DNA of 40,710 nucleotides from Enterobacteria phage HK140, in sequence record NC_019710.1. One strand, written 5' to 3'. A program made the position numbers and the translations under genes. Of the stretch, positions 1-40,710 are shown in pieces (the first letter of the stretch is position 1; each line of letters starts with the position of its first letter). The notes under the pieces were generated by a model. That model did not search any database. It was not told the DNA's origin and saw only the letters and a list, made by a program, of their open reading frames with translations.

Positions 1-46
1 CCTATCCCCTGTGTGCCTTGAGAGACGCCGACTACTACGTCTCTGT
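1..46. other. Terminal inverted repeat, left copy; probable sequencing-adaptor or assembly artefact
   Basis: nt 1-46 are the exact reverse complement of nt 40665-40710. Contains the palindromic pair GAGACG...CGTCTC. From memory only, the first 20 nt resemble a 454-type library primer. Confidence 0.6.
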
Positions 47-93
47 TTGAATTTAACGCTAACCCGATTTTTTTAGTTTTAAGGTGTTGACAT

Positions 94-579
94 ATGGCAG
101 ATAAACGAATCCGTTCCGACAGTTCGGCGGCAGCGGTTCAGGCCATGAAAAATGCAGCTGTGGACACCATCGATCCGCCGTCCCATGCAGGTTTGGAGAA
201 AAAAGCCGAACCATTCTGGCATGACAATATCAGATCGAAAGCTCTGGACAGCTGGACGCCTGCCGACCTTCTAGCCGCCGTAGAACTTGCTAATAATCAG
301 CTCTATATCACCGTTTTACGCAAGGATTTACGCAAAGAAGAGCGCATACGCGGGGAGGAGCGAGACGAAGGCCTTATAAAAGACCTCCGCAAGCAAATTG
401 TTGAGCTACAACGAACTATCCTGGCTCAGCGCCGCGACCTCCAGATCCACTCCCACGCAACCAACGGCGAAAGTCGCGACCAGAAGAAACGTAATCAGAA
501 CGATCGTGATGCACGGAATACCAAAAACGAGCATCAGGACCAGGACGATAACCTGATCGCCTTTCCCAAGCACGGATAA
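94..579 (+). CDS. Terminase small subunit (candidate)
   Basis: 161-aa ORF immediately upstream of the large terminase at the genome left end; RBS AAGGTG before the ATG; charged C-terminus. Confidence 0.55.
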   Translation: MADKRIRSDSSAAAVQAMKNAAVDTIDPPSHAGLEKKAEPFWHDNIRSKALDSWTPADLLAAVELANNQLYITVLRKDLRKEERIRGEERDEGLIKDLRKQIVELQRTILAQRRDLQIHSHATNGESRDQKKRNQNDRDARNTKNEHQDQDDNLIAFPKHG

Positions 580-585
580 AAGACT

Positions 586-2100
586 ATGACGCGAGGTGAG
601 CGTGTAATAGCGTTCATTGAGCGCTTTTGCATCGTGCCAGAAGGCAAGCTTATCGGCCAACCTATGCGGTTGGACCCCTTTCAGAAAGATTTCATCCTGG
701 CGGTTTACGACAATCCAGCCGGAACGGATATGGCGATCCTCTCCATCGCCCGAAAAAATGGTAAGACTGGCCTGATTGCCGGAATTCTGCTGGCTCACCT
801 GGTGGGGCCTGAAGCGGTGCAGAACACGCAGATTGTCAGCGGTGCACTCAGCCGGGAACAGGCGGCCATCGTTTTTAACCTCGCGGTGAAGATGGTTAAC
901 CTGAACCCCAAGCTGCAGGAGATTGTGCACATTACGCCCAGCGGCAAAAAGCTGATCGGCCTGCCGTGTAACGTCGAATACAAGGCTTTATCCGCAGAAG
1001 GTAAGACGACGCACGGCCTTTCCCCCATTCTGGCCATTCTCGATGAAACAGGGCAGGTTAGGGGCCCGCAGGATGATTTTATCGATGCAATAACTACGGC
1101 GCAGGGGGCTCATGAAAACCCGCTGCTAATCGTTATCAGTACGCAGGCAGCAAACGATGCTGACCTGCTTAGCATCTGGATTGATGATGCGGTCAAATCG
1201 AAAGATCCGCACATCGTGTGCCACGTTTATGAAGCGCCAAAAGACGCTGATATCAGTAAACGCGAGTCCTGGCTGGCTGCGAACCCGGCACTGGGAACAT
1301 TCAGGTCAGAAAAAGACATGGCGCGCCAGGCTGAGAAAGCTGGCCGAATGCCAAGCTTCGAAAACACCTTCCGAAACCTCAACCTCAATCAGCGCGTGTC
1401 TACCGTATCGCCGTTTATCTCCCGCAGCGTGTGGGAGCTTTGCGGAGAGATGCCGATTAACACCCCGAGGAAGTGGTACGCGGGGCTGGATCTGTCAGCC
1501 AGGAACGACTTAACGGCGCTGGTTATCGCTGGTGAAGCAGATGATGGTGTCTGGGATGTTTTCCCCTTCTTCTGGACACCGCAAAAGACTCTTGAAGAGC
1601 GAACCAAAACGGACCGAGCACCATATGACGTTTGGGTGAGGGAGGGGCTGCTGCGCACCACGCCAGGAGCTTCGGTGGATTACTCATTCGTCGTTGCGGA
1701 TATCGCTGAAATTATCGGTGATTTCGACCTTACCTCGATGGCTTTTGACCGCTGGCGCATTGACCAGTTCAGGAAGGATGCCGATGCCATTGGGCTGAGC
1801 CTCCCGCTGGTCGAGTTCGGCCAGGGCTTTAAGGATATGGGGCCAGCTGTAGACACGCTGGAGTCTCTGATGCTTAACGGGCGCGTGAGGCATGGCATGC
1901 ACCCCGTATTAACGATGTGTGCTGTGAATGCGGTGGTGGTGAAAGATGCTGCTGGCAACCGCAAGCTCGATAAATCCAAAGCAACGGGCCGTATTGATGG
2001 CATGGTCGCAATGACAATGTCCGTTGGTGCTGCTAATGGGGAAGTTACCGAACAGGGTGGTGACTTCGACGATTTCATTTTCCGACCGCTGAGCATGTGA
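586..2100 (+). CDS. terL: Terminase large subunit
   Basis: 504 aa; N-terminal ATPase-like region (KNGKTG Walker A-like motif, ILDETG); position between small terminase and portal. Confidence 0.85.
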   Translation: MTRGERVIAFIERFCIVPEGKLIGQPMRLDPFQKDFILAVYDNPAGTDMAILSIARKNGKTGLIAGILLAHLVGPEAVQNTQIVSGALSREQAAIVFNLAVKMVNLNPKLQEIVHITPSGKKLIGLPCNVEYKALSAEGKTTHGLSPILAILDETGQVRGPQDDFIDAITTAQGAHENPLLIVISTQAANDADLLSIWIDDAVKSKDPHIVCHVYEAPKDADISKRESWLAANPALGTFRSEKDMARQAEKAGRMPSFENTFRNLNLNQRVSTVSPFISRSVWELCGEMPINTPRKWYAGLDLSARNDLTALVIAGEADDGVWDVFPFFWTPQKTLEERTKTDRAPYDVWVREGLLRTTPGASVDYSFVVADIAEIIGDFDLTSMAFDRWRIDQFRKDADAIGLSLPLVEFGQGFKDMGPAVDTLESLMLNGRVRHGMHPVLTMCAVNAVVVKDAAGNRKLDKSKATGRIDGMVAMTMSVGAANGEVTEQGGDFDDFIFRPLSM

Positions 2101-3374
2101 TGGAAGAACCTAAATACACGATTGACCTGCGAACCAATAACGGCTGGTGGGCAAGGCTGAAGTCCTGGTTTGTCGGCGGGCGTTTAGTCACCCCAAATCA
2201 GGGCTCACAGACGGGGCCTGTTTCGGCCCACGGATACCTGGGCGATTCATCCATTAACGATGAACGGATACTGCAAATTTCGACTGTGTGGCGCTGCGTG
2301 AGCCTGATTTCAACGCTCACGGCATGCTTACCGCTTGATGTCTTCGAAACAGACCAGAATGACAACCGTAAAAAAGTGGATTTGAGCAATCCACTGGCGC
2401 GACTGCTGCGCTACTCACCGAATCAGTACATGACCGCCCAAGAATTCAGGGAGGCCATGACGATGCAGCTCTGTTTCTACGGTAACGCATATGCACTTGT
2501 GGACCGCAACAGCGCAGGTGACGTGATCAGCCTACTCCCGCTTCAGTCTGCCAATATGGATGTGAAACTCGTCGGAAAAAAAGTGGTTTATCGCTATCAA
2601 CGCGACAGCGAATACGCCGACTTTTCGCAGAAAGAGATTTTTCACCTTAAAGGCTTCGGATTCACCGGGCTTGTAGGCCTGTCACCCATTGCTTTTGCCT
2701 GTAAATCGGCAGGTGTGGCAGTTGCGATGGAGGACCAGCAGCGAGATTTCTTTGCCAACGGCGCCAAGTCTCCGCAAATCCTCTCAACTGGCGAAAAAGT
2801 GCTAACTGAACAGCAGCGCTCCCAGGTCGAAGAGAACTTCAAAGAGATCGCCGGCGGCCCGGTAAAAAAACGCCTCTGGATTCTGGAAGCGGGTTTTTCT
2901 ACATCGGCAATTGGCGTAACTCCGCAGGATGCCGAAATGATGGCGTCCCGAAAATTTCAGGTAAGTGAACTGGCGCGATTCTTTGGCGTACCGCCTCACC
3001 TTGTCGGCGACGTCGAGAAATCAACGAGCTGGGGATCGGGCATCGAGCAGCAGAATCTCGGCTTCCTGCAGTACACCCTGCAGCCCTATATCTCCAGGTG
3101 GGAAAACAGCATTCAGCGGTGGCTTATTCCTGCTAAGGATGTTGGCCGCATTCATGCTGAGCACAACCTCGACGGCCTGCTGAGGGGAGATTCGGCATCC
3201 CGCGCTGCCTTTATGAAGGCAATGGGAGAGTCAGGGCTACGCACCATCAACGAGATGCGACGAACGGACAACCTCCCGCCATTGCCGGGTGGCGATGTGG
3301 CAATGCGCCAGTCGCAATACGTGCCGATCACCGATTTAGGAACCAACAAAGAGCCCCGTAATAACGGGGCTTAA
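2100..3374 (+). CDS. Portal protein (HK97 family)
   Basis: 425 aa following terL; ATG overlaps the terL stop (GTGATGG); typical portal size and position. Confidence 0.8.
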   Translation: MEEPKYTIDLRTNNGWWARLKSWFVGGRLVTPNQGSQTGPVSAHGYLGDSSINDERILQISTVWRCVSLISTLTACLPLDVFETDQNDNRKKVDLSNPLARLLRYSPNQYMTAQEFREAMTMQLCFYGNAYALVDRNSAGDVISLLPLQSANMDVKLVGKKVVYRYQRDSEYADFSQKEIFHLKGFGFTGLVGLSPIAFACKSAGVAVAMEDQQRDFFANGAKSPQILSTGEKVLTEQQRSQVEENFKEIAGGPVKKRLWILEAGFSTSAIGVTPQDAEMMASRKFQVSELARFFGVPPHLVGDVEKSTSWGSGIEQQNLGFLQYTLQPYISRWENSIQRWLIPAKDVGRIHAEHNLDGLLRGDSASRAAFMKAMGESGLRTINEMRRTDNLPPLPGGDVAMRQSQYVPITDLGTNKEPRNNGA

Positions 3375-3379
3375 TTTTT

Positions 3380-4069
3380 ATGGGGGCCGTAATGCCTGAA
3401 ATCGTAAAAACGCTGTCCTTCGACGAGACAGAAATCAAATTCACCGGTGACGGTAAACAGGGGATTTTTGAAGGCTACGCCTCTGTTTTTAATAACACCG
3501 ATTCCGATGGCGACATCATTCTGCCCGGGGCGTTTAAAAACGCGCTGGCGAACCAGACCCGAAAAGTGGCGATGTTTTTTAACCACAGGACGTGGGAACT
3601 GCCGGTTGGCAAATGGGACAGCCTGGCTGAGGACGAAAAAGGCCTGTATGTGCGCGGTCAACTTACCCCAGGACACAGCGGCGCCGCTGACCTGAAAGCG
3701 GCAATGCAGCACGGTACGGTTGAAGGTATGTCGGTTGGCTTTTCCGTTTCGAAAGACGATTACACCATCATTCCAACAGGCCGCATTTTTAAGAATATCC
3801 AGGCTCTGCGCGAAATCAGCGTCTGCACTTTCCCCGCCAACGAACAGGCTGGCATCGCAGCCATGAAAAGTGTCGATGGTATTGAAACGATTCGTGATGT
3901 GGAGAACTGGCTGAGGGATTCAGTCGGCCTCACCAAATCACAGGCAGTTGGGCTAATTGCCCGGTTTAAGTCAGCGATTCGGAGCGAGTCCGAGGGCGAC
4001 GGAAACGAAGCACAAATAAACGCTCTGCTTCAGAGCATCAAATCTTTCCCTTCTAACTTAGGTAAATAA
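3380..4069 (+). CDS. Prohead maturation protease (HK97 type)
   Basis: 229 aa between portal and major capsid protein, the conserved HK97 gene order. Confidence 0.75.
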   Translation: MGAVMPEIVKTLSFDETEIKFTGDGKQGIFEGYASVFNNTDSDGDIILPGAFKNALANQTRKVAMFFNHRTWELPVGKWDSLAEDEKGLYVRGQLTPGHSGAADLKAAMQHGTVEGMSVGFSVSKDDYTIIPTGRIFKNIQALREISVCTFPANEQAGIAAMKSVDGIETIRDVENWLRDSVGLTKSQAVGLIARFKSAIRSESEGDGNEAQINALLQSIKSFPSNLGK

Positions 4070-4071
4070 TT

Positions 4072-5229
4072 ATGTCTGAACTCGCTCTCATTCAAAAAGC
4101 TATCGAAGAATCCCAGCAGAAAATGACCCAGCTTTTCGATGCGCAGAAAGCAGAAATCGAAAGCACAGGCCAGGTTTCCAAACAGTTGCAGTCCGACCTG
4201 ATGAAAGTACAGGAAGAGCTGACCAAATCCGGCACTCGCCTCTTCGATCTGGAACAGAAACTGGCATCCGGCGCTGAGAATCCTGGTGAGAAGAAATCCT
4301 TCTCTGAACGGGCTGCTGAAGAGCTTATTAAGTCATGGGACGGTAAACAGGGCACCTTTGGCGCTAAAACGTTTAACAAGTCACTAGGCAGTGACGCTGA
4401 TTCGGCTGGCTCACTGATCCAGCCTATGCAGATCCCAGGCATCATCATGCCAGGCCTGCGCCGTCTTACCATTCGTGATCTGCTGGCTCAGGGCCGCACT
4501 TCCAGTAACGCTCTGGAATATGTGCGTGAAGAGGTGTTTACCAATAACGCCGACGTGGTGGCAGAGAAAGCACTGAAGCCAGAATCGGATATCACCTTCA
4601 GCAAACAAACCGCGAACGTGAAGACCATCGCGCACTGGGTGCAGGCATCACGTCAGGTGATGGATGATGCGCCAATGCTTCAGTCCTACATTAACAACCG
4701 CCTCATGTACGGCCTGGCACTGAAGGAAGAGGGCCAGCTGCTGAACGGCGACGGTACCGGGGATAACCTGGAAGGGCTGAACAAAGTGGCAACCGCCTAT
4801 GACACCTCGCTGAATGCCACCGGCGACACCCGCGCTGACATTATCGCTCACGCTATTTATCAGGTGACCGAGTCTGAGTTCAGCGCTTCCGGTATCGTCC
4901 TGAACCCGCGCGACTGGCACAACATCGCGTTGCTGAAAGACAATGAAGGCCGCTATATCTTCGGTGGTCCTCAGGCATTCACCAGTAACATCATGTGGGG
5001 CTTGCCAGTGGTTCCGACTAAGGCGCAGGCCGCCGGCACCTTTACCGTAGGCGGTTTCGATATGGCCTCACAGGTCTGGGATCGCATGGATGCCACCGTG
5101 GAAGTTAGCCGTGAAGACCGCGATAACTTCGTGAAAAACATGCTGACCATCCTGTGCGAAGAGCGTCTGGCGCTGGCGCATTATCGCCCGACAGCAATCA
5201 TCAAGGGCACCTTCTCTTCTGGCTCATGA
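4072..5229 (+). CDS. Major capsid protein (HK97 fold)
   Basis: 385 aa directly after the protease; size and position match HK97-family capsid proteins. Confidence 0.85.
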   Translation: MSELALIQKAIEESQQKMTQLFDAQKAEIESTGQVSKQLQSDLMKVQEELTKSGTRLFDLEQKLASGAENPGEKKSFSERAAEELIKSWDGKQGTFGAKTFNKSLGSDADSAGSLIQPMQIPGIIMPGLRRLTIRDLLAQGRTSSNALEYVREEVFTNNADVVAEKALKPESDITFSKQTANVKTIAHWVQASRQVMDDAPMLQSYINNRLMYGLALKEEGQLLNGDGTGDNLEGLNKVATAYDTSLNATGDTRADIIAHAIYQVTESEFSASGIVLNPRDWHNIALLKDNEGRYIFGGPQAFTSNIMWGLPVVPTKAQAAGTFTVGGFDMASQVWDRMDATVEVSREDRDNFVKNMLTILCEERLALAHYRPTAIIKGTFSSGS

Positions 5230-5262
5230 TGGAGGGGGCGGGGAAACCCGCCCTTTTAACGT

Positions 5263-18658: not shown

Positions 18659-20032
18659 ATGCTTTATAACACCGGCACCATCGCCATTAATGGAAATACC
18701 GCCACCGGGAAGGGTACAAACTGGACGGCACCGGCCAGCCAGGTTCGCGCTGGCCAGACAATTATCGTGATGTCTAACCCGGTGCAACTGTTCCAGATTT
18801 CATCCGTGAACAGCGCCACGTCAATGACGGTTACGCCTGCCGCTTCCCCGGCGCTGAGCGGCCAGAAATACGCCATTCTGGTGTCAGACATTATCTCCGT
18901 GGACGGACTGGCCCAGGCAATGTCGCAGCTCATCAAAGAGTATGACGAGAACATTGGCGCGTGGGAGACGTTCGCCACTACCTCAGCAAACCAGACCATC
19001 ACCGTTACCATCAACGGGACCACCGTAACCATCCCTGGCATCGGTAAACTGGCACAGAAAGGGAGCAACGGTGCGGTTACTGTCGCAGACGGCGGAACCG
19101 GGGCAACAACGGCAGAAGGGAGTCGCACAAACCTCGGTTTAGGAGACAGCGCCACAAGGAACGTCGGAACGGCTGCCGGAACTGTGGCGGCCGGGGATGA
19201 TTCGCGATTCGAAAAGATTGCCAAATTAGGAAGTGCAGCAACAAAAGATACTGGTGAGGGTGAAGGAAATGTGCTGATAACGGGGTCATTTGGTGTGGGT
19301 TCTAAAATTTTACCAGTCATCAGCGATATTTGGGATAAAAGCCAAGGCTCGCGCTTCTGCAACGTTACCCCTGCGACATTGGGAGGTCCTGGTATTTACG
19401 GCTCAGGCATCCGGCTGTCTGATCGAAACATCGGAAGTGGAGCAACCTATGCCGCACAGCAATCCTTTTTTGCTCTGATTTTTAGCGGCAAAGTCATTCA
19501 ATTTATGGGGATGACTGATGGCGTCGACACCGGGTGGATGAAGATTTACCACACAGGGAACACGACCAGGGCATCTGATGGCACGCTGAAGGCCGCCTCC
19601 CCGATTGTACGGTTGTTTGGGAATGGCAAATGCCAGCTTAACGACGAATCAGAGGGGTGCACTGTAACCCGCTTGGCTACGGGAAAATATCTGGTTGAAG
19701 GGTGTGAGGGGCTTAACTCTGATGCCGCCTGGGGCGGTATTGATGGCGGTTTCGACATCCCAACCGACCGCAACAAACAACCGCTCATCTGGCTGGACTA
19801 CGAAGTAAACGCTGATGGTTCTGTGCTGATTCAAACCTACCACCGCACACATCCTTCGGCACCTGCTTATGCCAGAAATGAACGTGACGGGATCAATGAC
19901 GGAGAGCCTATTGATATCCCGTCAGATCAGTTCGTCAGCGTTCGAGTAGAAATGCCTGCTAACAGCATCTGGAATCAGAAACAGAAAGCAATAGAAGAAG
20001 CTGCGAAAAGCGCGTCCGAAGAGGTTCAATAA
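18659..20032 (+). CDS. Side tail fibre protein
   Basis: 458 aa from the ATG at 18659 (RBS GGAG); Gly/Thr/Ala-rich with motif DGGTGATTAEGSRTNLGLGDSATRNVG. Confidence 0.75.
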   Translation: MLYNTGTIAINGNTATGKGTNWTAPASQVRAGQTIIVMSNPVQLFQISSVNSATSMTVTPAASPALSGQKYAILVSDIISVDGLAQAMSQLIKEYDENIGAWETFATTSANQTITVTINGTTVTIPGIGKLAQKGSNGAVTVADGGTGATTAEGSRTNLGLGDSATRNVGTAAGTVAAGDDSRFEKIAKLGSAATKDTGEGEGNVLITGSFGVGSKILPVISDIWDKSQGSRFCNVTPATLGGPGIYGSGIRLSDRNIGSGATYAAQQSFFALIFSGKVIQFMGMTDGVDTGWMKIYHTGNTTRASDGTLKAASPIVRLFGNGKCQLNDESEGCTVTRLATGKYLVEGCEGLNSDAAWGGIDGGFDIPTDRNKQPLIWLDYEVNADGSVLIQTYHRTHPSAPAYARNERDGINDGEPIDIPSDQFVSVRVEMPANSIWNQKQKAIEEAAKSASEEVQ

Positions 20033-20430: not shown

Positions 20431-20670
20431 ATGCCTCGTAAATCAGATATTCATGCAGCTTTTTTAGCCTCTATAGAACAGAATCAAAAGGGTTACCTTT
20501 GTCTCAATACAAATAAATTCATCAATAAGTTGCGCGAGAAGAGCTGGCATTTCAGCCAGGCGGATGCAAATACATGGATCGAGCGATACCAGCCGGACTT
20601 CGCCGATAAGACGACAAACGGCAGCCAGAACCGGTACTGGATCCTGCGTAACATGGGGAGGGTTTTCTAA
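20431..20670 (+). CDS. Small protein upstream of umuD', positionally ImpC-like
   Basis: 79 aa from the ATG at 20431 (RBS GAGGG); stop overlaps the umuD' start (TAATG). Confidence 0.4.
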   Translation: MPRKSDIHAAFLASIEQNQKGYLCLNTNKFINKLREKSWHFSQADANTWIERYQPDFADKTTNGSQNRYWILRNMGRVF

Positions 20671-21059
20671 TGGGCTTTCCTTCGCCGGCTACGGATTACG
20701 TTGAACAGCGTATATCGCTTGACGAGCGCATCATCACCAGGCCAGCGGCTACGTACTTTATGCGGGCCGGTGCAACGCATTACCGAGAAGGTATCCTCAA
20801 TGGTGCTTTGCTGGTTGTCGACGCGTCAATGTCTCCATGTGATGGTTCATTGCTGGTTTGCACAGATAGCGGTGAGTTTAGGATTAAGCGGTATCGCACA
20901 CACCCGCGGCCACACCTGGAAAACCTTGAGAACGGTAAACGGGAGAGTTTGCTAGATAAGGATGAGGTATCCGACACTTCGCGTCCGGTATTTGGGGTGA
21001 TCACGTATATCATCAACGACGCGCGGTCTGGTGAGTTTGATGACTACCCGCTGAAGTGA
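20670..21059 (+). CDS. UmuD'-like protein (S24 family), natively lacking the N-terminal cleavage segment
   Basis: 129 aa starting MGFPSPATDYVEQRI, matching UmuD from Gly25 (GFPSPAADYVEQRI); the position of the UmuD Ser nucleophile aligns to Thr/His. Confidence 0.8.
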   Translation: MGFPSPATDYVEQRISLDERIITRPAATYFMRAGATHYREGILNGALLVVDASMSPCDGSLLVCTDSGEFRIKRYRTHPRPHLENLENGKRESLLDKDEVSDTSRPVFGVITYIINDARSGEFDDYPLK

Positions 21060-21372: not shown

Positions 21373-22551
21373 ATGGCTATAAGCGACACAAAACTGCGTA
21401 CTATTTATGGTAAACCATATTCGGGCCCACAAGAAGTGGCTGATGCCGATGGCCTCAGCGTACGAATTTCACCGAAGGGGGTCATTCAGTTCCAGTACCG
21501 TTATCGCTGGCATGGCAAGCCTAATCGACTTGGGCTTGGTCGATACCCATCCCTGTCTTTGAAGGATGCCAGACAGATCACTGCTGACTTGCGAAATCTC
21601 TATTTCTCAGGAACGGATCCACGCACCTATTTTGAAGAGAAGGTGGAGAACTCCATGACGGTCGCCCAGTGTCTCGACTACTGGTTCGACAACTACGTCT
21701 CTACAACTCTCAGAGAAAAGACCCAGGCACTTTACCGATCAACGGTTATGAAGCGCATGCATGACGCCTTTCCTAATCGTCCGGCATCTTCTATCACGGT
21801 TAAGCAATGGGTTGACCTGCTTACCGAAGAAGAAAGAGATAATCCACGCCGAGCAAGGCAGGTGCTAAGTCAACTAAGATCAGCAATAAGTTGGTGCATG
21901 CGGCGTCAGTTGATAGATAGTTGCGCAATTATGAGCATCCAACCAAGGGACTTCGGCTCCCGCGCTGAGGTAGGGGATCGGGTACTGTCGTATCACGAAC
22001 TGGCTAAGATTTGGCTTGCTATTGAAAGAAGCCGTGCGTCTACGTCAAATAAGCTACTTCATCAGATGCTTATGCTGTGGGGGGCGAGGCTCTCAGAGCT
22101 TAGGCTGGCAAAAAAGACAGAATTTGACCTGCTGGAAAACGTATGGACCGTACCGAAAGAGCATAGCAAGATGGGTAATGTTATCCGCCGTCCAATCTTC
22201 GAACAAATTAAGCCTTTCCTCGAAAAGGCCATGACAACGTACAATGATGTTCTTTTCCCTGGAGAAGACATAAACAAACCGATCAGCATCGCTGCAGCCA
22301 ACCGATTCGTAAATAGAATAAGGGGAGGGATGGATCTAGGTTACTGGCGAACACACGATTTCAGAAGAACGCTTGTTACACGTCTGTCCGAGATGAATGT
22401 CGAGCCTCATGTTACTGAGCGAATGCTCGGTCATGAACTTGGCGGGATAATGTCCGTGTACAATAAACACGACTGGATAGAGGCTCAGCGCAAAGCGTAT
22501 GAGCTTCACGCTGATAAATTGTTCTGGCACATCAGGAGCATTTCTGATTAA
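21373..22551 (+). CDS. int: Tyrosine integrase (P4-like, with N-terminal arm-binding domain)
   Basis: 392 aa; C-terminal catalytic region with HDFRRT and a terminal Tyr-containing segment (SVYNKHD). Confidence 0.9.
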   Translation: MAISDTKLRTIYGKPYSGPQEVADADGLSVRISPKGVIQFQYRYRWHGKPNRLGLGRYPSLSLKDARQITADLRNLYFSGTDPRTYFEEKVENSMTVAQCLDYWFDNYVSTTLREKTQALYRSTVMKRMHDAFPNRPASSITVKQWVDLLTEEERDNPRRARQVLSQLRSAISWCMRRQLIDSCAIMSIQPRDFGSRAEVGDRVLSYHELAKIWLAIERSRASTSNKLLHQMLMLWGARLSELRLAKKTEFDLLENVWTVPKEHSKMGNVIRRPIFEQIKPFLEKAMTTYNDVLFPGEDINKPISIAAANRFVNRIRGGMDLGYWRTHDFRRTLVTRLSEMNVEPHVTERMLGHELGGIMSVYNKHDWIEAQRKAYELHADKLFWHIRSISD

Positions 22552-29807: not shown

Positions 29808-30118
29808 GTTGACCTCCGATGAAACAACTTTGGAATTGATAGTGATTGCAAAGTGGTTTCTGGCCCCTCGAATTGAGGGGCAGAAAGAGCATCTCGCCAC
29901 CTAATAGGTCGATGCTCGGATCGAGAGATTTAATTAACCTCGGTTTTGAAGTTATGCATTCACATAAATCCTCCTGTTGCATGTGCAGCATTGGCTGTGT
30001 TTGGCGGCTGCATTTCGCCTATGGAATTGACTTTGGCGGTGACGCGCCGGGTGCTTATCTTCCGGTTGCCGTCGTGCAGCTGCACTTCACGTCACCCCAA
30101 AGCCAACTACTCTTTGGT

Positions 30119-30159
30119 TCCCGCATTTCGGCGGGACAATCCCATCAATGTTAAAGAGC
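30119..30159 (-). promoter_or_regulatory. nutL (boxA-like GGCTCTTTAA plus boxB hairpin)
   Basis: Minus-strand boxB TCCCGCCGAAATGCGGGA is identical to the nutR boxB; boxA-like element lies 14 nt upstream. Confidence 0.6.
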
Positions 30160-30206
30160 CTGCCAATCTGTTCCGTTTGGCTACCAGCGTCCTGCTGATG
30201 GTTAAA

Positions 30207-31787: not shown

Positions 31788-31831
31788 CGCTCTTTAACAG
31801 TCATGGTCATCACTCCCGCCGAAATGCGGGA
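31788..31831 (+). promoter_or_regulatory. nutR (boxA CGCTCTTTA plus boxB hairpin)
   Basis: boxA at 31788-31796; boxB TCCCGC-cgaaat-GCGGGA at 31814-31831. Confidence 0.7.
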
Positions 31832-31889
31832 ATACAACGCGCATAATTTGATGCGCATAACTTCTTATTTGTTAAGGAAATACTTACAT

Positions 31890-32168
31890 ATGCAACTTAC
31901 AAGTACTCGCAAGAAAGCGAATGCAATTACAAGCAACATCCTGAATCGAATTGCTGTACGTGGTCAGCGAAAGGTTGCCGACGCGTTAGGGATTAATGAA
32001 TCGCAAATTTCGCGATGGAAAGACAGCTTTATCCCAAAGATGGCCATGCTTCTGGCTGTGCTGGAGTGGGGTGTTGAAGACGAGGAATTAGCAAAGCTAG
32101 CAAAGAAAGTAGCCATGGTGCTGACAAAAGAAAAGCCTCAAGACTGCTGCAACAGTTTTGAGGCCTGA
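31890..32168 (+). CDS. cII: CII transcriptional activator
   Basis: 92 aa from the ATG at 31890 (RBS AAGGA); QISRWK...IPKMAMLLAVLEWGVEDEE matches lambda CII (SQISRWKRDWIPKFSMLLAVLEWGV). Confidence 0.85.
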   Translation: MQLTSTRKKANAITSNILNRIAVRGQRKVADALGINESQISRWKDSFIPKMAMLLAVLEWGVEDEELAKLAKKVAMVLTKEKPQDCCNSFEA

Positions 32169-32202
32169 TGTAGAAAGACTGGATCAATCCACAGGAGTCA
32201 TT

Positions 32203-33102
32203 ATGACAAATACAGCAAAAATACTCAACTTCTGCAGAGGTAACTTTGCCAAACAGGAGCGTAATGTGGCAGATCTCGATGATGGTTACGCCAGACTATC
32301 AAATATGCTGCTTGAGGCTTATTCAGGCGCAGATCTGACCAAGCGACAGTTTAAAGTGCTGCTTGCCATTCTGCGTAAAACCTATGGGTGGAATAAACCA
32401 ATGGACAGAATCACCGATTCTCAACTTAGCGAGATTACAAAGTTACCCGTCAAACGGTGCAATGAAGCCAAGTTAGAACTCGTCAGAATGAATATTATCA
32501 AGCAGCAAGGCGGCATGTTTGGACCAAATAAAAACATCTCAGAATGGTGTATCCCTCAAAACGAGGGAAAATCCCCTAAAACGAGGGATAAAACATCCCT
32601 CAAATTGGGGGATTGCTATCCCTCAAAACAGGGGGACACAAAAGACACTAATACAAAAGAAAAAAGAAAAGATTATTCGTCAGAGAATTCTGGCGAATCC
32701 TCTGACCAGCCAGAAAACGATCTTTCTGTGGTTAAACCGGATGCTGCAATTCAGAGCGGCAGCAAGTGGGGAACAGCAGAAGACCTGACCGCCGCAGAGT
32801 GGATGTTTGACATGGTGAAGACTATCGCACCATCAGCCAGAAAACCGAATTTTGCTGGGTGGGCTAACGATATCCGCCTGATGCGTGAACGTGACGGACG
32901 TAACCATCGCGACATGTGTGTACTGTTCCGCTGGGCATGCCAGGACAACTTCTGGTCCGGTAACGTTCTTAGCCCGGCCAAACTCCGCGACAAGTGGACC
33001 CAGCTCGAAATCAACCGTAACAAGCAACAGGCAGTCGTGACAGCCAGCAAACCAAAACTCGACCTGACAAACACAGACTGGATTTACGGGGTGGATCTAT
33101 GA
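32203..33102 (+). CDS. O: Replication initiator O
   Basis: 299 aa from the ATG at 32203; appears near-identical to lambda O from memory (MTNTAKILNF...); contains the ori iterons. Confidence 0.9.
   Translation: MTNTAKILNFCRGNFAKQERNVADLDDGYARLSNMLLEAYSGADLTKRQFKVLLAILRKTYGWNKPMDRITDSQLSEITKLPVKRCNEAKLELVRMNIIKQQGGMFGPNKNISEWCIPQNEGKSPKTRDKTSLKLGDCYPSKQGDTKDTNTKEKRKDYSSENSGESSDQPENDLSVVKPDAAIQSGSKWGTAEDLTAAEWMFDMVKTIAPSARKPNFAGWANDIRLMRERDGRNHRDMCVLFRWACQDNFWSGNVLSPAKLRDKWTQLEINRNKQQAVVTASKPKLDLTNTDWIYGVDL
32552..32636. repeat. ori iterons (four copies of the TCCCTCAAAACGAGGGA-type repeat) with adjacent A/T-rich region
   Basis: Four related ~18-bp repeats at 32552, 32572, 32597 and 32619, followed by an A/T-rich stretch at 32641-32675, inside the O gene. 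Confidence 0.8.
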
Positions 33103-34087: not shown

Positions 34088-34160
34088 CCATCTACATTAC
34101 TGAGCTAATAACAGGCCTGCTGGTAATCGCAGGCCTTTTTATTTGGGGGAGAGGGAAGTC

Positions 34161-34601
34161 ATGAAAAAACTAACCTTTGAAATTCGATCTCCAGCACATC
34201 AGCAAAACGCTATTCACGCAGTACGGCAAATCCTTCCAGACCCAACCAAACCAATCGTAGTAACCATTCAGGAACGCAACCGCAGCTTAGACCAGAACCG
34301 AAAGCTTTGGGCTTGCCTTGGTGACGTCTCTCGTCAGGTTGAATGGCATGGTCGCTGGCTGGATGCAGAAAGCTGGAAGTGTGTGTTTACCGCAGCATTA
34401 AAGCAGCAGGATGTTGTTCCTAACCTTGCCGGGAATGGCTTTGTGGTAATAGGCCAGTCAACCAGCAGGATGTGTGTAAGCGAATTTGCGGAGCTATTAG
34501 AGCTTATACAGGCATTCGGTACAGAGCGTGGCGTTAAGTGGTCAGACGAAGCGCGACTGGCTCTGGAGTGGAAAGCGCGATGGGGAGATCGGGCTGCATG
34601 A
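34161..34601 (+). CDS. ninB: NinB (Orf-family recombination mediator)
   Basis: 146 aa from the ATG at 34161 (MKKLTFEIRSPAHQQNAIHA...), lambda NinB-like. Confidence 0.85.
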   Translation: MKKLTFEIRSPAHQQNAIHAVRQILPDPTKPIVVTIQERNRSLDQNRKLWACLGDVSRQVEWHGRWLDAESWKCVFTAALKQQDVVPNLAGNGFVVIGQSTSRMCVSEFAELLELIQAFGTERGVKWSDEARLALEWKARWGDRAA

Positions 34602-35125
34602 CTATCAAATCAAATACGCCAGCGCACGACAAGGACTGCTGGCAAACGCCGCTTTGGCTTTTTGATGCACTGGATATTGAGTTTGGATTCTGGCTGGATT
34701 CGGCAGCGAGCGACAAAAATGCTCTGTGTGCTCACTGGCTAACTGAGGCCGACGACGCGCTCAATTCTGAGTGGGTAAGCCACGGTGCAATCTGGAATAA
34801 CCCACCGTACAGCAATATCAGGCCGTGGGTGGAAAAAGCCGCTGAGCAGTGCATACAACAGCGACAGACGGTAGTGATGCTTGTGCCAGAGGATATGTCA
34901 GTCGGATGGTTCAGCAAGGCTCTGGAGAGTGTTGACGAAGTTCGTATTATCACTGATGGACGGATTAATTTTATCGAACCATCGACAGGGCTGGAGAAGA
35001 AGGGAAACAGCAAAGGTTCCATGCTGCTGATTTGGCGACCGTTCATCAGTCCTCGACGGATGTTTACTACCGTATCCAAAGCGGCATTGATGGCGATCGG
35101 GCAGGGCGTCAGGAGGGCGGCATGA
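34598..35125 (+). CDS. DNA N6-adenine methyltransferase (phage Dam type)
   Basis: 175 aa from the ATG at 34598 (ATGA overlap with ninB); NPPYS motif (the DPPY-type catalytic motif). Confidence 0.8.
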
Positions 35126-35304: not shown

Positions 35305-35471
35305 TTGACCCAAATCGAAGTTACGAACAACAAAGCGTCGAGCGGGCTTTAACGTGCGCTAACTGCGGTCAGAAGCTGCATGTGCTGGAAGTTCACGTGT
35401 GTGAGCACTGCTGCGCAGAACTGATGAGCGATCCGAATAGCTCAATGTACGAGGAAGAAGACGATGAATGA
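35301..35471 (+). CDS. ninF: NinF
   Basis: 56 aa from a GTG start ([38 protein letters not shown]...); below the ORF-track cutoff, translated by hand. Confidence 0.6.
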
Positions 35472-36186: not shown

Positions 36187-36476
36187 TGGCTAATCTACGC
36201 AAAGAAGCACGCGGCAGAGAATGCCAGGTACGTATTTACGGCGTATGCAATGGTAATCCTGAAACTACAGTTCTGGCACATTACCGGATGGCTGGAATTT
36301 GCGGAACGGGAATGAAGCCTGACGACCTGATCGGCGCATGGGCTTGTAGCGCGTGTCACGATGAAATCGACCGACGCACCCATAATCTCGACAACAAAGA
36401 CGCCAAACTTTACCACCTCGAAGGCGTGATCAGGACGCAGGCGATACTGCTGAAGGAGGGGAAGATTAAGCCATGA
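36186..36476 (+). CDS. DUF1364 (YbcO-like) protein
   Basis: 96 aa; MANLRKEARGRECQVRIYGVCNGNPETTVLAHYR with Cys/His cluster, YbcO-like from memory. Confidence 0.6.
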   Translation: MANLRKEARGRECQVRIYGVCNGNPETTVLAHYRMAGICGTGMKPDDLIGAWACSACHDEIDRRTHNLDNKDAKLYHLEGVIRTQAILLKEGKIKP

Positions 36477-36835
36477 ACGAATATCAGTTTGTGCTTCCAT
36501 ACCCGCCGTCGGTGAACACCTACTGGCGAAGACGGGGAAGCCAATACTACATCAGCGCTAAAGGCCAGAAATACCGAAAAGATGTACAGCAAATAATCCG
36601 CCAACTCAAGTTAGACATTTTCACCAAATCACGACTCCGCATCAAAGTCATCGCAGACGTTCCAGACTCCCGCCGCCGCGACCTCGACAACATCCTGAAA
36701 GGTTTACTCGACTCCCTTATCCACGCCGGATTTGCGGAAGACGACGAGCAATTCGATGACATTCGTGTAATTCGTGGTGTGAAAGTACCAGGCGGAAGGC
36801 TTGGAATAAAAATCACCGAACTGGAGAACGCATGA
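36473..36835 (+). CDS. rusA: RusA Holliday junction resolvase
   Basis: 120 aa; LPYPPSVNTYWRRRG, DVPDSRRRDLDNILKGLLDSL and GGRLGIKITE align with E. coli RusA. Confidence 0.85.
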   Translation: MNEYQFVLPYPPSVNTYWRRRGSQYYISAKGQKYRKDVQQIIRQLKLDIFTKSRLRIKVIADVPDSRRRDLDNILKGLLDSLIHAGFAEDDEQFDDIRVIRGVKVPGGRLGIKITELENA

Positions 36836-37020
36836 ACGCCACAATTCAAACGATACCAGAGCTTCTTATCCAGACACGAGGCAATCAGACCGAAGTGGCG
36901 AGGATGCTTTCCTGCGCAAGAGGAACAGTGCTCAAGTACAACCGAGACAGCAAAGGCGAGCGTCACGTAATAGTTAACGGCGTCCTGATGGTCAAACAGG
37001 GCAAGAGGGGAAGACCATGA
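36832..37020 (+). CDS. ninH: NinH
   Basis: 62 aa; GNQTEVARMLSCARGTVLKY matches the lambda NinH HTH region. Confidence 0.7.
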   Translation: MNATIQTIPELLIQTRGNQTEVARMLSCARGTVLKYNRDSKGERHVIVNGVLMVKQGKRGRP

Positions 37021-37640
37021 GACTCGAAAGCGTAGCTAAATTTCATTCGCCAAAAAGCCCGATGATGAGCGACTCACCACGGGCTACGGCTTCTGACTCT
37101 CTTTCCGGTACTGATGTGATGGCTGCTATGGGGATGGCGCAATCACAAGCCGGATTCGGAATGGCTGCATTCTGTGGCAAGCACGAACTCAGCCAGAACG
37201 ACAAACAAAAGGCTATCAACTATCTGATGCAATTTGCACACAAGGTATCGGGGAAATACCGTGGTGTGGCAAAGCTCGAAGGAAATACTAAGGCAAAGGT
37301 ACTGCAAGTGCTCGCAACATTCGCTTATGCGGATTATTGCCGTAGTGCCGCGACGCCGGGCGCAAGATGCAGAGATTGTCACGGTACTGGCCGGGCCGTT
37401 GATATTGCCAAAACAGAACGGTGGGGGAGAGTTGTCGAGAAAGAGTGCGGAAGATGCAAAGGCGTCGGCTATTCAAGGATGCCAGCAAGCGCAACATATC
37501 GCGCTGTGACGATGCTAATCCCAAACCTTACTCAACCCACCTGGTCACGCACTGTTAAGCCGCTGTATGACGCTCTGGTGGTTCAATGCCACAAGGAAGA
37601 GTCAATCGCAGACAACATTTTGAACGCGGTCACACGTTAG
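37017..37640 (+). CDS. Q: Late antiterminator Q
   Basis: 207 aa; appears near-identical to lambda Q from memory; Zn-finger CRDCHGTG...CGRCKG. Confidence 0.9.
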   Translation: MRLESVAKFHSPKSPMMSDSPRATASDSLSGTDVMAAMGMAQSQAGFGMAAFCGKHELSQNDKQKAINYLMQFAHKVSGKYRGVAKLEGNTKAKVLQVLATFAYADYCRSAATPGARCRDCHGTGRAVDIAKTERWGRVVEKECGRCKGVGYSRMPASATYRAVTMLIPNLTQPTWSRTVKPLYDALVVQCHKEESIADNILNAVTR

Positions 37641-37682
37641 CAGCATGATTGCCACGGATGGCAACATATTAACGGCATAATA

Positions 37683-37711
37683 TTGACTTTTTGAATAAAA
37701 TTGGGTAAATT
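37683..37711 (+). promoter_or_regulatory. Late promoter pR' (-35 TTGACT, 17-bp spacer, -10 TAAATT) with overlapping qut region
   Basis: Matches the lambda pR' sequence as recalled: TTGACTttttgaataaaattgggTAAATT. Confidence 0.7.
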
Positions 37712-37746
37712 TGACTCAACGATGGATAAATGCACTCGTTAAATAA

Positions 37747-37782
37747 AGCCCTGAGTTAATATCTCGGGGCTTTTTGCGTTTT
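37747..37782 (+). terminator. Intrinsic terminator about 30-65 nt downstream of the pR' start (tR'-like)
   Basis: Hairpin AGCCCTGAG-ttaatat-CTCGGGGCT followed by TTTTTGCGTTTT. Confidence 0.7.
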
Positions 37783-38073
37783 AAGCACGGCCTTTCTGAA
37801 AGCACATCAAACCAAATACCAGACAGACAAAAATAATCACCTTATCCGCTGTGGCTACGGTGCGGTGTGCTTTGCATAAAAGAAAACCAGCGCAATGGCT
37901 GGCTTCGTGAAAGCGGGTGGCATGAGGTTGCCCTAACAACCTCCTGCCGTTTTGCCCGTGCATATCGGTCACGAACAAATCTGATTACTAAACACAGTAG
38001 CCTGGATTTGTTCTATCAGTAATCGACCTTATTCCTAATTAAATAGAGCAAATCCCCTTATTGGGGGTAAGAC

Positions 38074-38397
38074 ATGAAGATGCCAGAAAAAAATGACCTG
38101 TTAGCCGCCATTCTCGCGGCAAAGGAACAAGGCATCGGGGCAATCCTTGCGTTTGCAATGGCGTACCTTCGCGGCAGATATAATGGCGGTGCGTTTACAA
38201 AAACAGTAATCGACGCAACGATGTGCGCCATTATCGCCTGGTTCATTCGTGACCTTCTCGACTTCGCCGGACTAAGTAGCAATCTCGCTTATATAACGAG
38301 CGTGTTCATCGGCTACATCGGTACTGACTCGATTGGTTCGCTTATCAAACGCTTCGCTGCTAAAAAAGCCGGAGTAGAAGATGGTGGAAATCAATAA
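38074..38397 (+). CDS. S: Holin S (dual-start motif MKM)
   Basis: 107 aa matching lambda S ([40 protein letters not shown]...). Confidence 0.9.
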
Positions 38398-38857
38398 TCA
38401 ACGTAAGGCGTTCCTCGATATGCTGGCGTGGTCAGAGGGAACAGATAACGGACGTCAGAAAACCAGAAATCATGGTTATGACGTCATTGTAGGAGGAGAG
38501 CTATTCACTGATTACTCCGATCACCCTCGCAAACTTGTCACGCTAAACCCAAAACTCAAATCAACAGCAGCCGGACGCTACCAGCTTCTTTCCCGTTGGT
38601 GGGATGCCTACCGCAAGCAGCTTGGGCTGAAAGACTTCTCTCCGAAAAGCCAGGACGCTGTTGCACTACAGCAGATTAAAGAGCGTGGCGCTTTACCGAT
38701 GATTGATCGCGGTGATATTCGTCAGGCTATCGACCGTTGCAGCAATATCTGGGCTTCACTGCCGGGCGCTGGTTATGGTCAGTTCGAGCATAAGGCTGAC
38801 AACCTGATTGCAAAATTCAAAGAAGCAGGCGGAACGGTCAGAGAGATTGAGGTATGA
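38381..38857 (+). CDS. R: Endolysin R (lytic transglycosylase)
   Basis: 158 aa matching lambda R ([39 protein letters not shown]...). Confidence 0.9.
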
Positions 38858-39291
38858 GCAGAGTAACCGCGATTATCTCCGCTCTGGTTATCTGCATCAT
38901 CGTTTGCCTGTCATGGGCTGTTAATCATTACCGTGATAACGCCATTACCTACAAAGCCCAGCGCGATAAAGCCACGTACATCATCGCTGACATGCAGAAG
39001 CGTCAACGTGATGTAGCAGAACTCGACGCCAGATACACAAAGGAGCTTGCTGATGCTAACGCGACTATCGAAAGTCTCCGTGCTGATGTTTCTGCTGGGC
39101 GTAAGCGCCTGCAAGTCGCCGCCACCTGTGCAAAGTCAACGACCGGAGCCAGCAGCATGGGCGATGGAGAAAGCCCAAGACTTACAGCAGATGCTGAACT
39201 CAATTATTACCGTCTCAGAAGTGGAATCGACAGGATAACCGCGCAGGTTAACTACCTGCAGGAATACATCAGGACGCAATGCCTGAAATGA
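38854..39291 (+). CDS. Rz: Spanin Rz (inner-membrane subunit)
   Basis: 145 aa; N-terminal 40 residues match lambda Rz, C-terminal half divergent. Confidence 0.85.
39053..39238 (+). CDS. Rz1: Spanin Rz1 (outer-membrane lipoprotein), embedded in Rz in the +1 frame
   Basis: 61 aa from the ATG at 39053 (RBS AAGGAG); lipobox LLGVSAC followed by the Pro-rich stretch [13 protein letters not shown]. Confidence 0.75.
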
Positions 39292-39327
39292 TCGGGCGAT
39301 GAAAACCAAAAAAAACAGGAGCAATAC

Positions 39328-39603
39328 ATGACTAAGCTTTATCACCGCATCTCAACTTTTCTCTCTGGTTGCTGGGCGTTTATCACGTCTATTTCGTTCG
39401 CCATCTTTAGTTTCGGCAGCACAGCGTGCTCGCTTAGTCGGGGTCTGTGGCGTGCTATTTCAGCACTAGCGCCGAAATTTTTACCTGAAAAGGCTGTTTG
39501 GCGAATTGTAGAGCGAATGTGTAGTGAGAGCGTTCGCGAGAAGATTAACGTATTTGGACGTCATCCTCGAAATACAGGCGCATTGTGCAGTCCGTTACTG
39601 TAG
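39328..39603 (+). CDS. Hypothetical membrane protein downstream of the lysis cassette
   Basis: 91 aa; strong RBS AGGAG 7 nt before the ATG; hydrophobic N-terminal half. Confidence 0.35.
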   Translation: MTKLYHRISTFLSGCWAFITSISFAIFSFGSTACSLSRGLWRAISALAPKFLPEKAVWRIVERMCSESVREKINVFGRHPRNTGALCSPLL

Positions 39604-39994
39604 TCATTACAAAGCCCATCTACGGGTGGGCTTGATAATGAAACCGGAATTTATTCTTGGCAACCAGTTACGGCAGTACCACGAAACAACCCAAGCCAGA
39701 AAGTGTGGAAATAACACTGGCAGCCACTGAAAGATAAACCTCCTGCCTTATGGCAAAAAAGATTCTTTGTGGTGGCGGACTGATGGAAAGACATCGGTTA
39801 TTGCAGAGACCATTCAATGAGTGGTCTCGACAATGGCTTATACCCTACACGGGATAACTTAACTGATATCCCTTTTAACGGATAAACGGAGCCAACAATG
39901 GCAGAGATTATTCCCATGACTGAAGAACAGAAATTCCAGTTAGAGATTTACAAACTGGTCATGAACCAGAACGCCGCCGTGCATGGAGACTGGC

Positions 39995-40336
39995 ATGAAC
40001 AAAGAGCTCCGCGTATATGGCAGCCGATGGGATAAGGCCCGTCTGCGTTTTCTCCAGCAGCACCCACTGTGTGTGATGTGCGAGCAGCAGGGGCGCATAA
40101 CACCAGCAACGGTGGTCGACCATATCGTGCCCCACAAACTGAAAGATGCGCTTAAGTCAGGTAACCCTCTGGCCATATCGAAAGCACAGCTCCTGTTCTG
40201 GAGTAAAGAGAACTGGCAGCCACTGTGCAAAGCGCATCATGACTCAACGAAACAGAGAATGGAGAAGAGCGGCGCGGTAATAGGTTGTGATGCCAACGGC
40301 TACCCGCTCGATCCTGCGTCTCACTGGAGCACGTAA
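39995..40336 (+). CDS. HNH endonuclease (terminase-associated type)
   Basis: 113 aa from the ATG at 39995 (RBS GGAGA); Cys pairs CVMC...C and CKAHHD with VDHIVPH, an HNH fold; located just before the genome right end. Confidence 0.8.
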   Translation: MNKELRVYGSRWDKARLRFLQQHPLCVMCEQQGRITPATVVDHIVPHKLKDALKSGNPLAISKAQLLFWSKENWQPLCKAHHDSTKQRMEKSGAVIGCDANGYPLDPASHWST

Positions 40337-40539
40337 TGAAAGACCTCATCATTGAATACCGAGACGGTAAGTTTGTTCAGCTGGCGATTGATGGCGTGGA
40401 GATGAAGCGCGTAACGTCTATCCAGTTCTCCCACACCGTAGGCGAGGACGTACCGACATTGACCGTCTCAGGACATGTGTGGTCCGAGTATGGGAAAGGC
40501 GATCACAAACTCGAACAGGTAGACAAACATTCGGCATAG
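40336..40539 (+). CDS. Hypothetical protein
   Basis: 67 aa; ATG overlaps the HNH stop. Confidence 0.35.
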   Translation: MKDLIIEYRDGKFVQLAIDGVEMKRVTSIQFSHTVGEDVPTLTVSGHVWSEYGKGDHKLEQVDKHSA

Positions 40540-40664
40540 CGCGGCGGCGGCAAGTCGATTATCTATCATGTGAAATCATTTCAAATGCAACGATATCAAA
40601 TGAGAATGAATCGCATTCATGGCAGGGGGGGGGGATCAAATCTTCAAAACCTTTTCCCTAAATG

Positions 40665-40710
40665 ACAGAGACGTAGTAGTCGGCGTCTCTCAAGGCACAC
40701 AGGGGATAGG
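40665..40710. other. Terminal inverted repeat, right copy; probable sequencing-adaptor or assembly artefact
   Basis: Exact reverse complement of nt 1-46. Confidence 0.6.

Follow-up and report, generated by a model that had tools for sequence, protein, structure and literature searches.

A Roche 454 Rapid Library adaptor as the near-certain source of the terminal inverted repeat in the Enterobacteria phage HK140 record

The sequence record of Enterobacteria phage HK140 (NC_019710.1), analysed here over its whole length of 40,710 nucleotides (the window), starts and ends with a perfect inverted repeat. This repeat is almost certainly an artefact, namely the Roche 454 Rapid Library adaptor bearing the RL10 barcode, attached to the virion DNA of an HK97-like cos phage. 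The evidence lies in the identity of three adaptor modules, their absence from related phages, the coincidence of the junctions with the termini of HK97, and a gap of 10 nt at the point where the two ends of the genome would meet.

The repeat and its modules

Bases 1-46 (CCTATCCCCTGTGTGCCTTGAGAGACGCCGACTACTACGTCTCTGT) are 100% complementary, in inverted orientation, to bases 40665-40710, with the match broken at base 47. A first-pass annotation of the sequence had described the former as the exact reverse complement of the latter, and direct comparison bears this out. The terminal pair is by far the longest inverted repeat of the window, the next perfect one measuring 19 nt. The outer 33-mer occurs at the two ends only and in 0 of 100 dinucleotide-preserving shuffles.

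The same annotation had regarded the repeat as probable adaptor or assembly contamination to be trimmed. The contamination stands, with the B-Rapid primer, the GACT key and RL10 at each end, and its length has to be corrected from 46 to 44 nt, as window bases 45 and 40666 are the counterparts of HK97 bases 1 and 39722 in the alignment. The first two true phage bases are thus GT (45..46, plus strand) and the last two AC (40665..40666, plus strand), and their fortuitous match stretches the 44-nt repeat to 46 nt. A symmetric cos site was considered as the source of this extension and rejected, since the symmetry spans just 2 nt, in keeping with chance (1 in 16), and since 8 of 28 other adaptor-made repeats are likewise lengthened by 1-3 nt through chance.

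The outermost module is the synthetic 454 B-Rapid adaptor/primer, CCTATCCCCTGTGTGCCTTGAGAGACGCC (1..29, plus strand), recognised by a regular-expression match to the published primer, CCTATCCCCTGTGTGCCTTGAGAGACGHC (PMC4034615), which has a degenerate H at the position where the window has C. The first-pass annotation was right in likening the first 20 nt to a 454-type primer; they match B-Rapid and are found at the ends of numerous public contigs of unrelated origin. Next comes the synthetic Rapid Library key GACT (30..33, plus strand), assigned from the 3′ end of the A-Rapid primer, which as published ends ...CGACGACT, i.e., in GACT (PMC4034615), and from contaminated bacterial contigs, in which primer, spacer and GACT are likewise arranged (CCTCCCAC-GACT). 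The innermost module is the synthetic multiplex identifier (MID) RL10, ACTACGTCTCT (34..44, plus strand), given with this sequence in barcode lists (PMC4403950; PMC5085084). The RL barcodes are 11 nt long and all end in T, and bases 34-44 conform to this.

The right end carries the same modules on the minus strand: the reverse complement of the RL10 MID, AGAGACGTAGT (40667..40677), and that of the key, AGTC (40678..40681), both placed by sequence match, and the reverse complement of the B-Rapid primer, GGCGTCTCTCAAGGCACACAGGGGATAGG (40682..40710), which matches the published primer. The three-part pattern of B-Rapid, GACT and RL10 is found without a mismatch at both ends (44/44 nt). Each end carries the B side alone, oriented outward, and the A primer has no match in the window even at 3 mismatches. 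Literature searches with the full 29-mer in either orientation returned no match, no paper of the library searched prints the 44-mer, and shorter pieces gave B-Rapid and the RL10 list; the identification is the sum of three separately documented modules rather than one printed 44-mer.

The phage genome and its cos ends

Between the adaptors lies the double-stranded genome of a mosaic HK97-like lambdoid temperate phage (45..40666, plus strand; 40,622 bp). Over 2,956 nt, from window base 45 to base 3000, the sequence is 99.9% identical to HK97 (bases 1-2956). The early and immunity regions are mosaic: bases 10000-34000 are covered to at most 51% by any single phage record, the best being mEpX2 (51% covered at 94% identity), and the phage collection holds no full-length match to the window. 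The small terminase subunit gene (TerS; 94..579, plus strand) is placed by the annotation of HK97 and its relatives under the 99.9% identical match, and the large subunit gene (TerL; 586..2100, plus strand) by the Pfam domains TerL_ATPase and TerL_nuclease. A tyrosine integrase gene (21373..22551, plus strand) is recognised by Arm-DNA-bind_3 and Phage_integrase. Just upstream of cos is a gene for an HNH endonuclease resembling HK97 gp74 (39983..40336, plus strand), assigned by Pfam HNH and by the annotation of relatives and prophages; gp74 stimulates cos cleavage in HK97 (PMC11331095).

The Pfam scan of 30 proteins returned lambda O/P replication, integrase, RecT, terminase, portal and HNH functions, and the lambda-type O/P replication module is accompanied by ori iterons. 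Among these 30 proteins, a set that does not take in every small ORF, there is no transposase, protelomerase, terminal protein or family-B (protein-primed) polymerase, and neither a tRNA scan nor an Rfam scan found RNA genes. In gene content, the phage is an ordinary lambdoid one. The first-pass view of a cos-type lambda-like phage with a tyrosine integrase agrees with the HK97 match and with Pfam, and its statement that transposase and protelomerase are lacking holds for the proteins scanned.

Both adaptor junctions fall at the termini of HK97. On the left, the first 66 bases of HK97 recur unchanged in the window at 45-110. On the right, the last phage base of the window lies 10 nt before the HK97 right end, and past this point HK97 reads CGCCGCCAAA, its 3′ cohesive end; a 10-nucleotide 3′ overhang has been reported for HK97 cos (PMC11331095). 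The decamer stands between the two junction points in all seven sequences read at base level (HK97, mEp234 and five prophages), with the five E. coli prophages and the permuted mEp234 reading ...AAATGAC-CGCCGCCAAA-(G/A)TTTGA... uninterrupted over the junction. The flanks of cos, ...AAATGAC on one side and GTTTGAATTTAACGC... on the other, are conserved in the window. The decamer itself is absent from the entire window, and the insert (45-40666) has no terminal direct repeat. By coordinates, the spacing of the two homologous points is exactly 10 nt in each of 10 related phages: the records of HK97, HK022 and HK75 extend past the match by 10 nt; six that begin with the terminase ATG extend past it by 59 nt (10 + 49); and the two points are 10 nt apart in mEp234 (PV340539).

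When a 3′ overhang is polished, its bases are lost, whereas a 5′ overhang is filled in and is then seen at both ends. Since the decamer is missing from the window and no terminal direct repeat is present, it appears that a 3′ overhang was polished away. The adaptor junctions very probably form a footprint of the virion termini at single-base resolution. In that case, this mosaic HK97-like phage is cut at the cos positions of HK97, and its cohesive ends would be 3′ extensions, because the 10 nt were lost and not duplicated. Extrapolation from the seven relatives makes CGCCGCCAAA the most likely overhang of this phage. The complete genome is most likely bases 45-40666 (40,622 bp) together with the 10-nt 3′ overhang, that is 40,632 nt. 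The earlier advice to trim the ends is sound for 44 nt at each end, although trimming alone leaves a genome without its 10-nt 3′ cohesive end. The HK97 study places binding of the small terminase 15-29 bp downstream of the cleavage point (PMC11331095), which predicts a binding site within cos at 59..73 (plus strand), coordinates counted from base 45 that may be off by at least one base relative to the numbering of that paper.

Formation of the artefact and alternative readings

The Rapid Library method employs a Y-adaptor design and an enzyme mix, and its reads start on the A side and run toward the B side. From the way in which this method works, we infer the platform and the steps of end-polishing, ligation and read-through; no entry listed by a literature search on the sister phages of the HK/mEp series named a sequencing method. 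Virion DNA purified from an HK97-like cos phage would have been taken into a GS FLX Titanium or GS Junior Rapid Library with the RL10 barcoded adaptor. End-polishing would strip the 10-nt 3′ cohesive overhangs, leaving the DNA blunt exactly at the inner boundaries of cos, and these blunt genome ends would be A-tailed and joined to the T-overhang adaptor. It is at such polished natural cos ends that the adaptors appear to have been ligated, because the junctions equal the HK97 termini and only the 10-nt overhang is missing. Reads that reach the end of a fragment would finish with the complement of the MID, AGTC and the complement of the B primer. As the ends of internal fragments are random, adaptor tails there should never reach the consensus; the natural genome ends are fixed, so that many reads would share one junction and, at either end, the assembler could carry the consensus on into the adaptor. 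On one strand this would give B primer, key and MID on the left and their reverse complement on the right, a perfect inverted repeat of 44 nt. Across a rejoined cos, the junction would read ...CCCTAAATGAC-CGCCGCCAAA-GTTTGAATTT...

The adaptor could instead have come to lie at arbitrary contig ends, if a circular or permuted assembly had been broken at random and extended by stray adaptor-bearing reads; the junctions would then carry no information on the virion termini. Such placements do occur, as the B primer is often found at arbitrary places in bacterial draft genomes, or even inside contigs (43 of 64 matches are internal), and one deposited phage record, annotated as circular, has the 454 primer in mid-genome. 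Here, however, the left junction is HK97 base 1 and the right one is the HK97 length minus 10, the published length of the overhang, and comparison with the prophages shows exactly those 10 nt missing and nothing else. Two random breakpoints would coincide in this way with a probability of about (1/40,000)^2, and random breakage is judged very unlikely. That a linear sequence is bounded by a perfect 46-nt repeat might, taken by itself, also suggest a terminal inverted repeat native to the virion DNA, of the kind found in protein-primed phages (phi29, PRD1), in a telomere plasmid-prophage (N15) or in a transposable element. This is contradicted by a repeat composed of three documented synthetic modules and missing from every relative and from all collections scanned, by lambda-type O/P replication with its ori iterons and a tyrosine integrase, and by a TerS/TerL/HNH cos packaging module 99.9% identical to that of HK97; nor do the 30 proteins scanned include a terminal protein, family-B polymerase, protelomerase or transposase. 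Gene content and the relatives both led to the rejection of a native origin, whose chance of being correct is minute.

Deliberate engineering has a comparably minute chance. The first-pass annotation had pointed to type IIS recognition sequences in inverted orientation; these are indeed present (GAGACG at 22-27, CGTCTC at 38-43), and they are incidental, belonging to the adaptor spacer and to the RL10 barcode. They might be read as the scar of a genome cloned between inverted BsmBI/Esp3I (CGTCTC) sites for seamless release in the manner of Golden Gate. The cut geometry of BsmBI/Esp3I is 1/5. With CGTCTC at 38-43 followed by one base and then the phage, the cut would fall exactly at the adaptor/genome junction, and the right end mirrors this. 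The enzyme would, however, fragment the phage insert, which holds 13 further sites (7 CGTCTC and 6 GAGACG), and such a design was rejected on account of these internal sites. CGTCTC here simply belongs to the RL10 barcode, no design would call for a 454 B primer and a GACT key beyond the sites, and a designer would not omit the 10-nt cohesive end.

Occurrence in public data, consequences and comparison with known systems

Exact scans found the 20-nt B primer in unrelated organisms, at 64 genome loci, at least 120 metagenome loci and 83 viral loci. It faces outward at a contig end in 110 of 113 viral matches and in 104 of 120 among the metagenome matches listed. Adaptor-made perfect repeats of 53-56 nt are present at both ends of 28 IMG/VR contigs. 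The record of phage HK633 retains 3 leftover bases and lacks the overhang. The 33-mer of the present record was not found in 2.9 million viral contigs, 32 million genome contigs or 241 million metagenome records, and the full-length 44-mer was not found by BLAST in 50,697 phage records or 72,556 plasmid records. The BLAST search of phages and plasmids with the 44-mer did return matches to the 20-nt primer and one weak 31-nt match in an Azospirillum plasmid. Control scans with the 20-mer worked, and the viral, genome and metagenome scans yielded no second public example of the exact RL-MID form.

The value of these observations is practical and not biological. Left untrimmed, the 88 adaptor bases create false terminal inverted repeats, by which tools that judge completeness or replication mode could be misled. 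The junctions also mark, to the base and at no added cost, the boundaries of cos cleavage in this phage. If they are a footprint of the virion termini, untrimmed adaptors in other phage assemblies of the 454 era could be mined for termini without experiments. Comparable artefacts in public data include the 28 IMG/VR contigs, the phage record with the internal 454 primer and the HK633 record.

The IMG/VR contigs (samples 3300022558/559/657/658/659) share with the window the same 20-nt 454 B primer, outward-facing at both ends, and the resulting perfect inverted repeats. They carry the Lib-L form, GCAGTCTCAG followed by CCTCTCTATGGGCAGTCGGTGAT, in contrast to the Rapid Library MID form seen here, and their junctions are not known to be natural genome ends. 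With phi29, PRD1 and N15 only the geometry of inverted repeats at linear ends is shared; the window has a synthetic repeat that its relatives lack, and the proteins scanned include no terminal protein, polymerase B or protelomerase. The RL10 adaptor of the Roche 454 GS FLX Titanium / GS Junior Rapid Library, in B-side read-through, is the same as the terminal sequence described here, with no sequence difference. HK97 (AF069529 / NC_002167) has a homologous TerS/TerL/portal module, with HNH upstream of cos and TerS/TerL downstream. Its record includes the 10-nt overhang, which the window lacks, and over the last 45 nt the two differ by 2 substitutions and by a longer G run in the window (10 vs 8; 40625-40634). 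The cos flanks are conserved between them, and the double-stranded part of HK97 ends at the same bases as the phage sequence of the window.

Composition of the terminal repeat

The first 46 bases of the window (CCTATCCCCTGTGTGCCTTGAGAGACGCCGACTACTACGTCTCTGT) are the perfect reverse complement of 40665-40710, and with both strands read the match is broken by base 47. This agrees exactly with the terminal inverted repeat described in the first-pass annotation. It is the longest inverted repeat of the window, the runner-up perfect repeat being 19 nt. The outer 33-mer has no occurrence in the window besides those at its two ends, and 100 shuffles never produced it; the repeat is far beyond chance.

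On its sequence, the repeat resolves into three documented synthetic modules with no bases left over. At the left end, window 1-29 matches the “454 B-Rapid” primer, given as CCTATCCCCTGTGTGCCTTGAGAGACGHC (PMC4034615). This is followed at 30-33 by GACT, the key with which the A-Rapid primer CCATCTCATCCCTGCGTGTCTCCGACGACT ends (PMC4034615), and at 34-44 by ACTACGTCTCT, the Rapid Library barcode RL10 (PMC4403950, PMC5085084), a sequence that also serves as a MID (PMC5450337). The three-module pattern fits both window ends with 0 mismatches, and the A primer was not found in the window with up to 3 mismatches allowed. The sequence thus reads as the RL10 Rapid Library adaptor. The earlier suspicion of adaptor contamination is supported by these module matches, with its length corrected from 46 to 44 nt. 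The GAGACG and CGTCTC sites to which it drew attention are present, but they belong to the adaptor, the former lying within the spacer and the latter within the RL10 barcode.

Phage ends and a probable missing cohesive end

Window 45-3000 aligns with Escherichia phage HK97 1-2956 at 99.9% identity, with window base 45 corresponding to HK97 base 1, while the right-end alignment stops at HK97 base 39722 of 39732, corresponding to window base 40666. Read side by side, HK97 starts with GTTTGAATTTAACGC and finishes with AAATGAC-CGCCGCCAAA, and the window reads adaptor-GTTTGAATTTAACGC at the left and AAATGAC-adaptor at the right. Because HK97 sequence begins at window 45 and stops at 40666, the adaptor accounts for 44 nt at each end. 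The match is stretched to 46 by the phage's own GT (45-46) and AC (40665-40666), for which the chance is 1 in 16. Of 28 other adaptor-made repeats, five run 1 nt past the adaptor, two run 2 nt and one runs 3 nt, matching the expected distribution. The adaptor junctions, as judged from these alignments, very probably mark the true cos ends of the phage genome.

The 10-mer CGCCGCCAAA was not found on either strand of the window, and a search for a terminal direct repeat of the insert returned none. In the permuted mEp234 genome (PV340539), exactly these ten bases lie between the homologues of window 40666 and window 45, and the junction runs without interruption as AAATGAC-CGCCGCCAAA-(G/A)TTTGA in five independent E. 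coli prophages. A 10-nt gap is seen by coordinates in eight further records. The records of HK022 and HK75 end 10 nt past the right-end match, and six that have the terminase ATG as their start continue for 59 nt (10 + 49) past it. For HK97 itself, a 3′ overhang of 10 nucleotides at cos is reported (PMC11331095). Such a loss is expected if end-polishing took off 3′ overhangs before ligation; a 5′ overhang would be filled in and so be visible at both ends, unlike in the window. The assembly thus appears to lack a 10-nt 3′ cohesive end, and the correct sequence is 45-40666 plus the overhang, probably CGCCGCCAAA, to a total of 40,632 nt.

The mechanism that we infer draws on the Rapid Library workflow, and the adaptor geometry supports it. 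Virion DNA would have been fragmented and end-polished, then given A tails and joined to adaptors with T overhangs. Rapid Library reads begin on the A side, and those reaching the fragment end would run out through the complement of the MID, AGTC and the complement of the B primer. Random internal fragment ends would not accumulate, while the two fixed natural ends would; since these ends are fixed and accumulate, the consensus would have run on into the B adaptor at both. All sixteen RL barcodes given in PMC4403950 have T as the last base. The mechanism predicts B-only, outward-facing copies at both ends, which is what the window shows. The terminal repeat is an artefact, without biological novelty.

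Gene content and rival readings

The HK140 insert is an ordinary lambdoid temperate phage. It carries structural and packaging genes (TerS, TerL, portal, prohead protease, HK97-fold capsid, tail tip J, tail fibre), genes for integration, recombination and exclusion (tyrosine integrase, RecT, SieB), and genes for regulation and replication (N, S24/HTH repressor, lambda O and P, NinB, Dam, antirepressor, RusA, Q). An HNH endonuclease gene lies directly upstream of cos, close to the right end, near which the lysis genes are annotated in relatives. No transposase, protelomerase or protein-primed polymerase occurs among the 30 proteins scanned, bearing out the earlier statement on the first two. 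The central part of the genome is mosaic, with the best single record in the phage collection (without the window's own record) spanning at most 51% of 10000-34000.

A native inverted repeat, which would account for the exact complementarity of the ends, is rejected: the sequence is identical to synthetic oligonucleotides and absent from relatives, and the gene content, as seen in the 30 proteins scanned, is contrary to it. The exact RL-MID 33-mer was not found in the viral, genome or metagenome contig collections, all three scanned, nor the 44-mer in 50,697 phage records (the window's own record lying outside this set) or 72,556 plasmid records; a mobile sequence of natural origin is thereby ruled out. 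The flanking sites might suggest a BsmBI release cassette, a reading ruled out by 13 BsmBI sites inside the insert, the flanking site being a mere part of RL10. Contamination at random breakpoints would also leave adaptor at contig ends; it is rejected because the two junctions match the HK97 termini to the exact base, with precisely the overhang absent.

Several other sites were observed. A 19-nt perfect inverted-repeat pair corresponds to two N-utilisation sites, nutL (30118-30160, minus strand), which on the leftward strand lies upstream of the N gene, and nutR (31789-31832, plus strand), directly after the cro-like gene; each has boxA CGCTCTTTAACA and, after it, the boxB hairpin TCCCGC-CGAAAT-GCGGGA. 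At 32550-32634, within the replication protein O gene (32158-33102), an 18-nt unit (TATCCCTCAAAACGAGGG, with variants) occurs three times; these copies are the iterons of a lambda-type origin. A 129-aa ORF at 20670-21059, flanked by the tail fibre genes and the integrase gene, partially matches Peptidase_S24 (LexA/UmuD-like; profile positions 8-84 of 116, E = 1.4e-6). It may be an accessory gene, or a truncated one, at the site where morons usually lie. The ORFs of NinB (34143-34601) and of a Dam-family adenine methyltransferase (34538-35125, with GTG as the listed start) overlap by 64 nt, and the methyltransferase probably has its true start downstream of 34538. A run of 10 G lies at 40625-40634, 32 nt short of the right cos boundary; among relatives its length is 8 (HK97, HK633 and three prophages of the five), 9-10 (the remaining two prophages) or 11 (mEp234, PV340539). 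As homopolymer length is unreliable in 454 assembly, the true length of the run in HK140 is uncertain.

The 454 primer in other public sequences

The 20-nt B primer is present in metagenomes (at least 120 loci), in viral sequences (83 loci) and in the genomes of unrelated bacteria such as Sphingomonas, Janthinobacterium, Dyella and Caloramator (64 loci). It faces outward at a contig end in 110 of 113 viral matches and, among the matches listed, in 104 of 120 from metagenomes, while 43 of the 64 in bacterial genomes are internal. In a few bacterial draft assemblies, e.g., Actinobacillus seminis ATCC 15768, Sediminibacterium salmoneum NBRC 103935, Labrenzia sp. DG1229 and Cupriavidus basilensis OR16, scaffolds hold many copies of the primer followed by CCTCCCAC-GACT, presumably the non-barcoded Rapid Library form. 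The internal draft-genome copies point to adaptor-mediated chimeric joins or scaffolding across untrimmed contig ends.

Two phage records also carry apparent traces of 454 adaptors. Escherichia phage HK633 (JQ086377.1) starts with ACT-GTTTGAATTT and finishes with AAATGAC, the 10-nt cohesive end being absent; its bases 1-3 equal the final 3 nt of barcodes RL1, RL5 or RL7. This looks like the same adaptor artefact, trimmed incompletely. Xenohaliotis phage pCXc-HC2016 (KY296500.1), annotated as circular and complete, contains all 30 nt of the 454 Lib-L B primer at 19605-19634 in an intergenic position, which suggests that the assembly was joined there across adaptor.

A parallel is provided by 28 viral contigs of IMG/VR (samples 3300022558, 3300022559, 3300022657, 3300022658 and 3300022659) whose two ends carry the B primer within perfect inverted repeats, 53-56 nt long. 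These are composed of the 454 Lib-L B primer CCTATCCCCTGTGTGCCTTGGCAGTCTCAG and CCTCTCTATGGGCAGTCGGTGAT, which we take to be an Ion Torrent P1 adaptor tail. Like the ends of HK140, such adaptor-made repeats could pass for proof of complete linear genomes.
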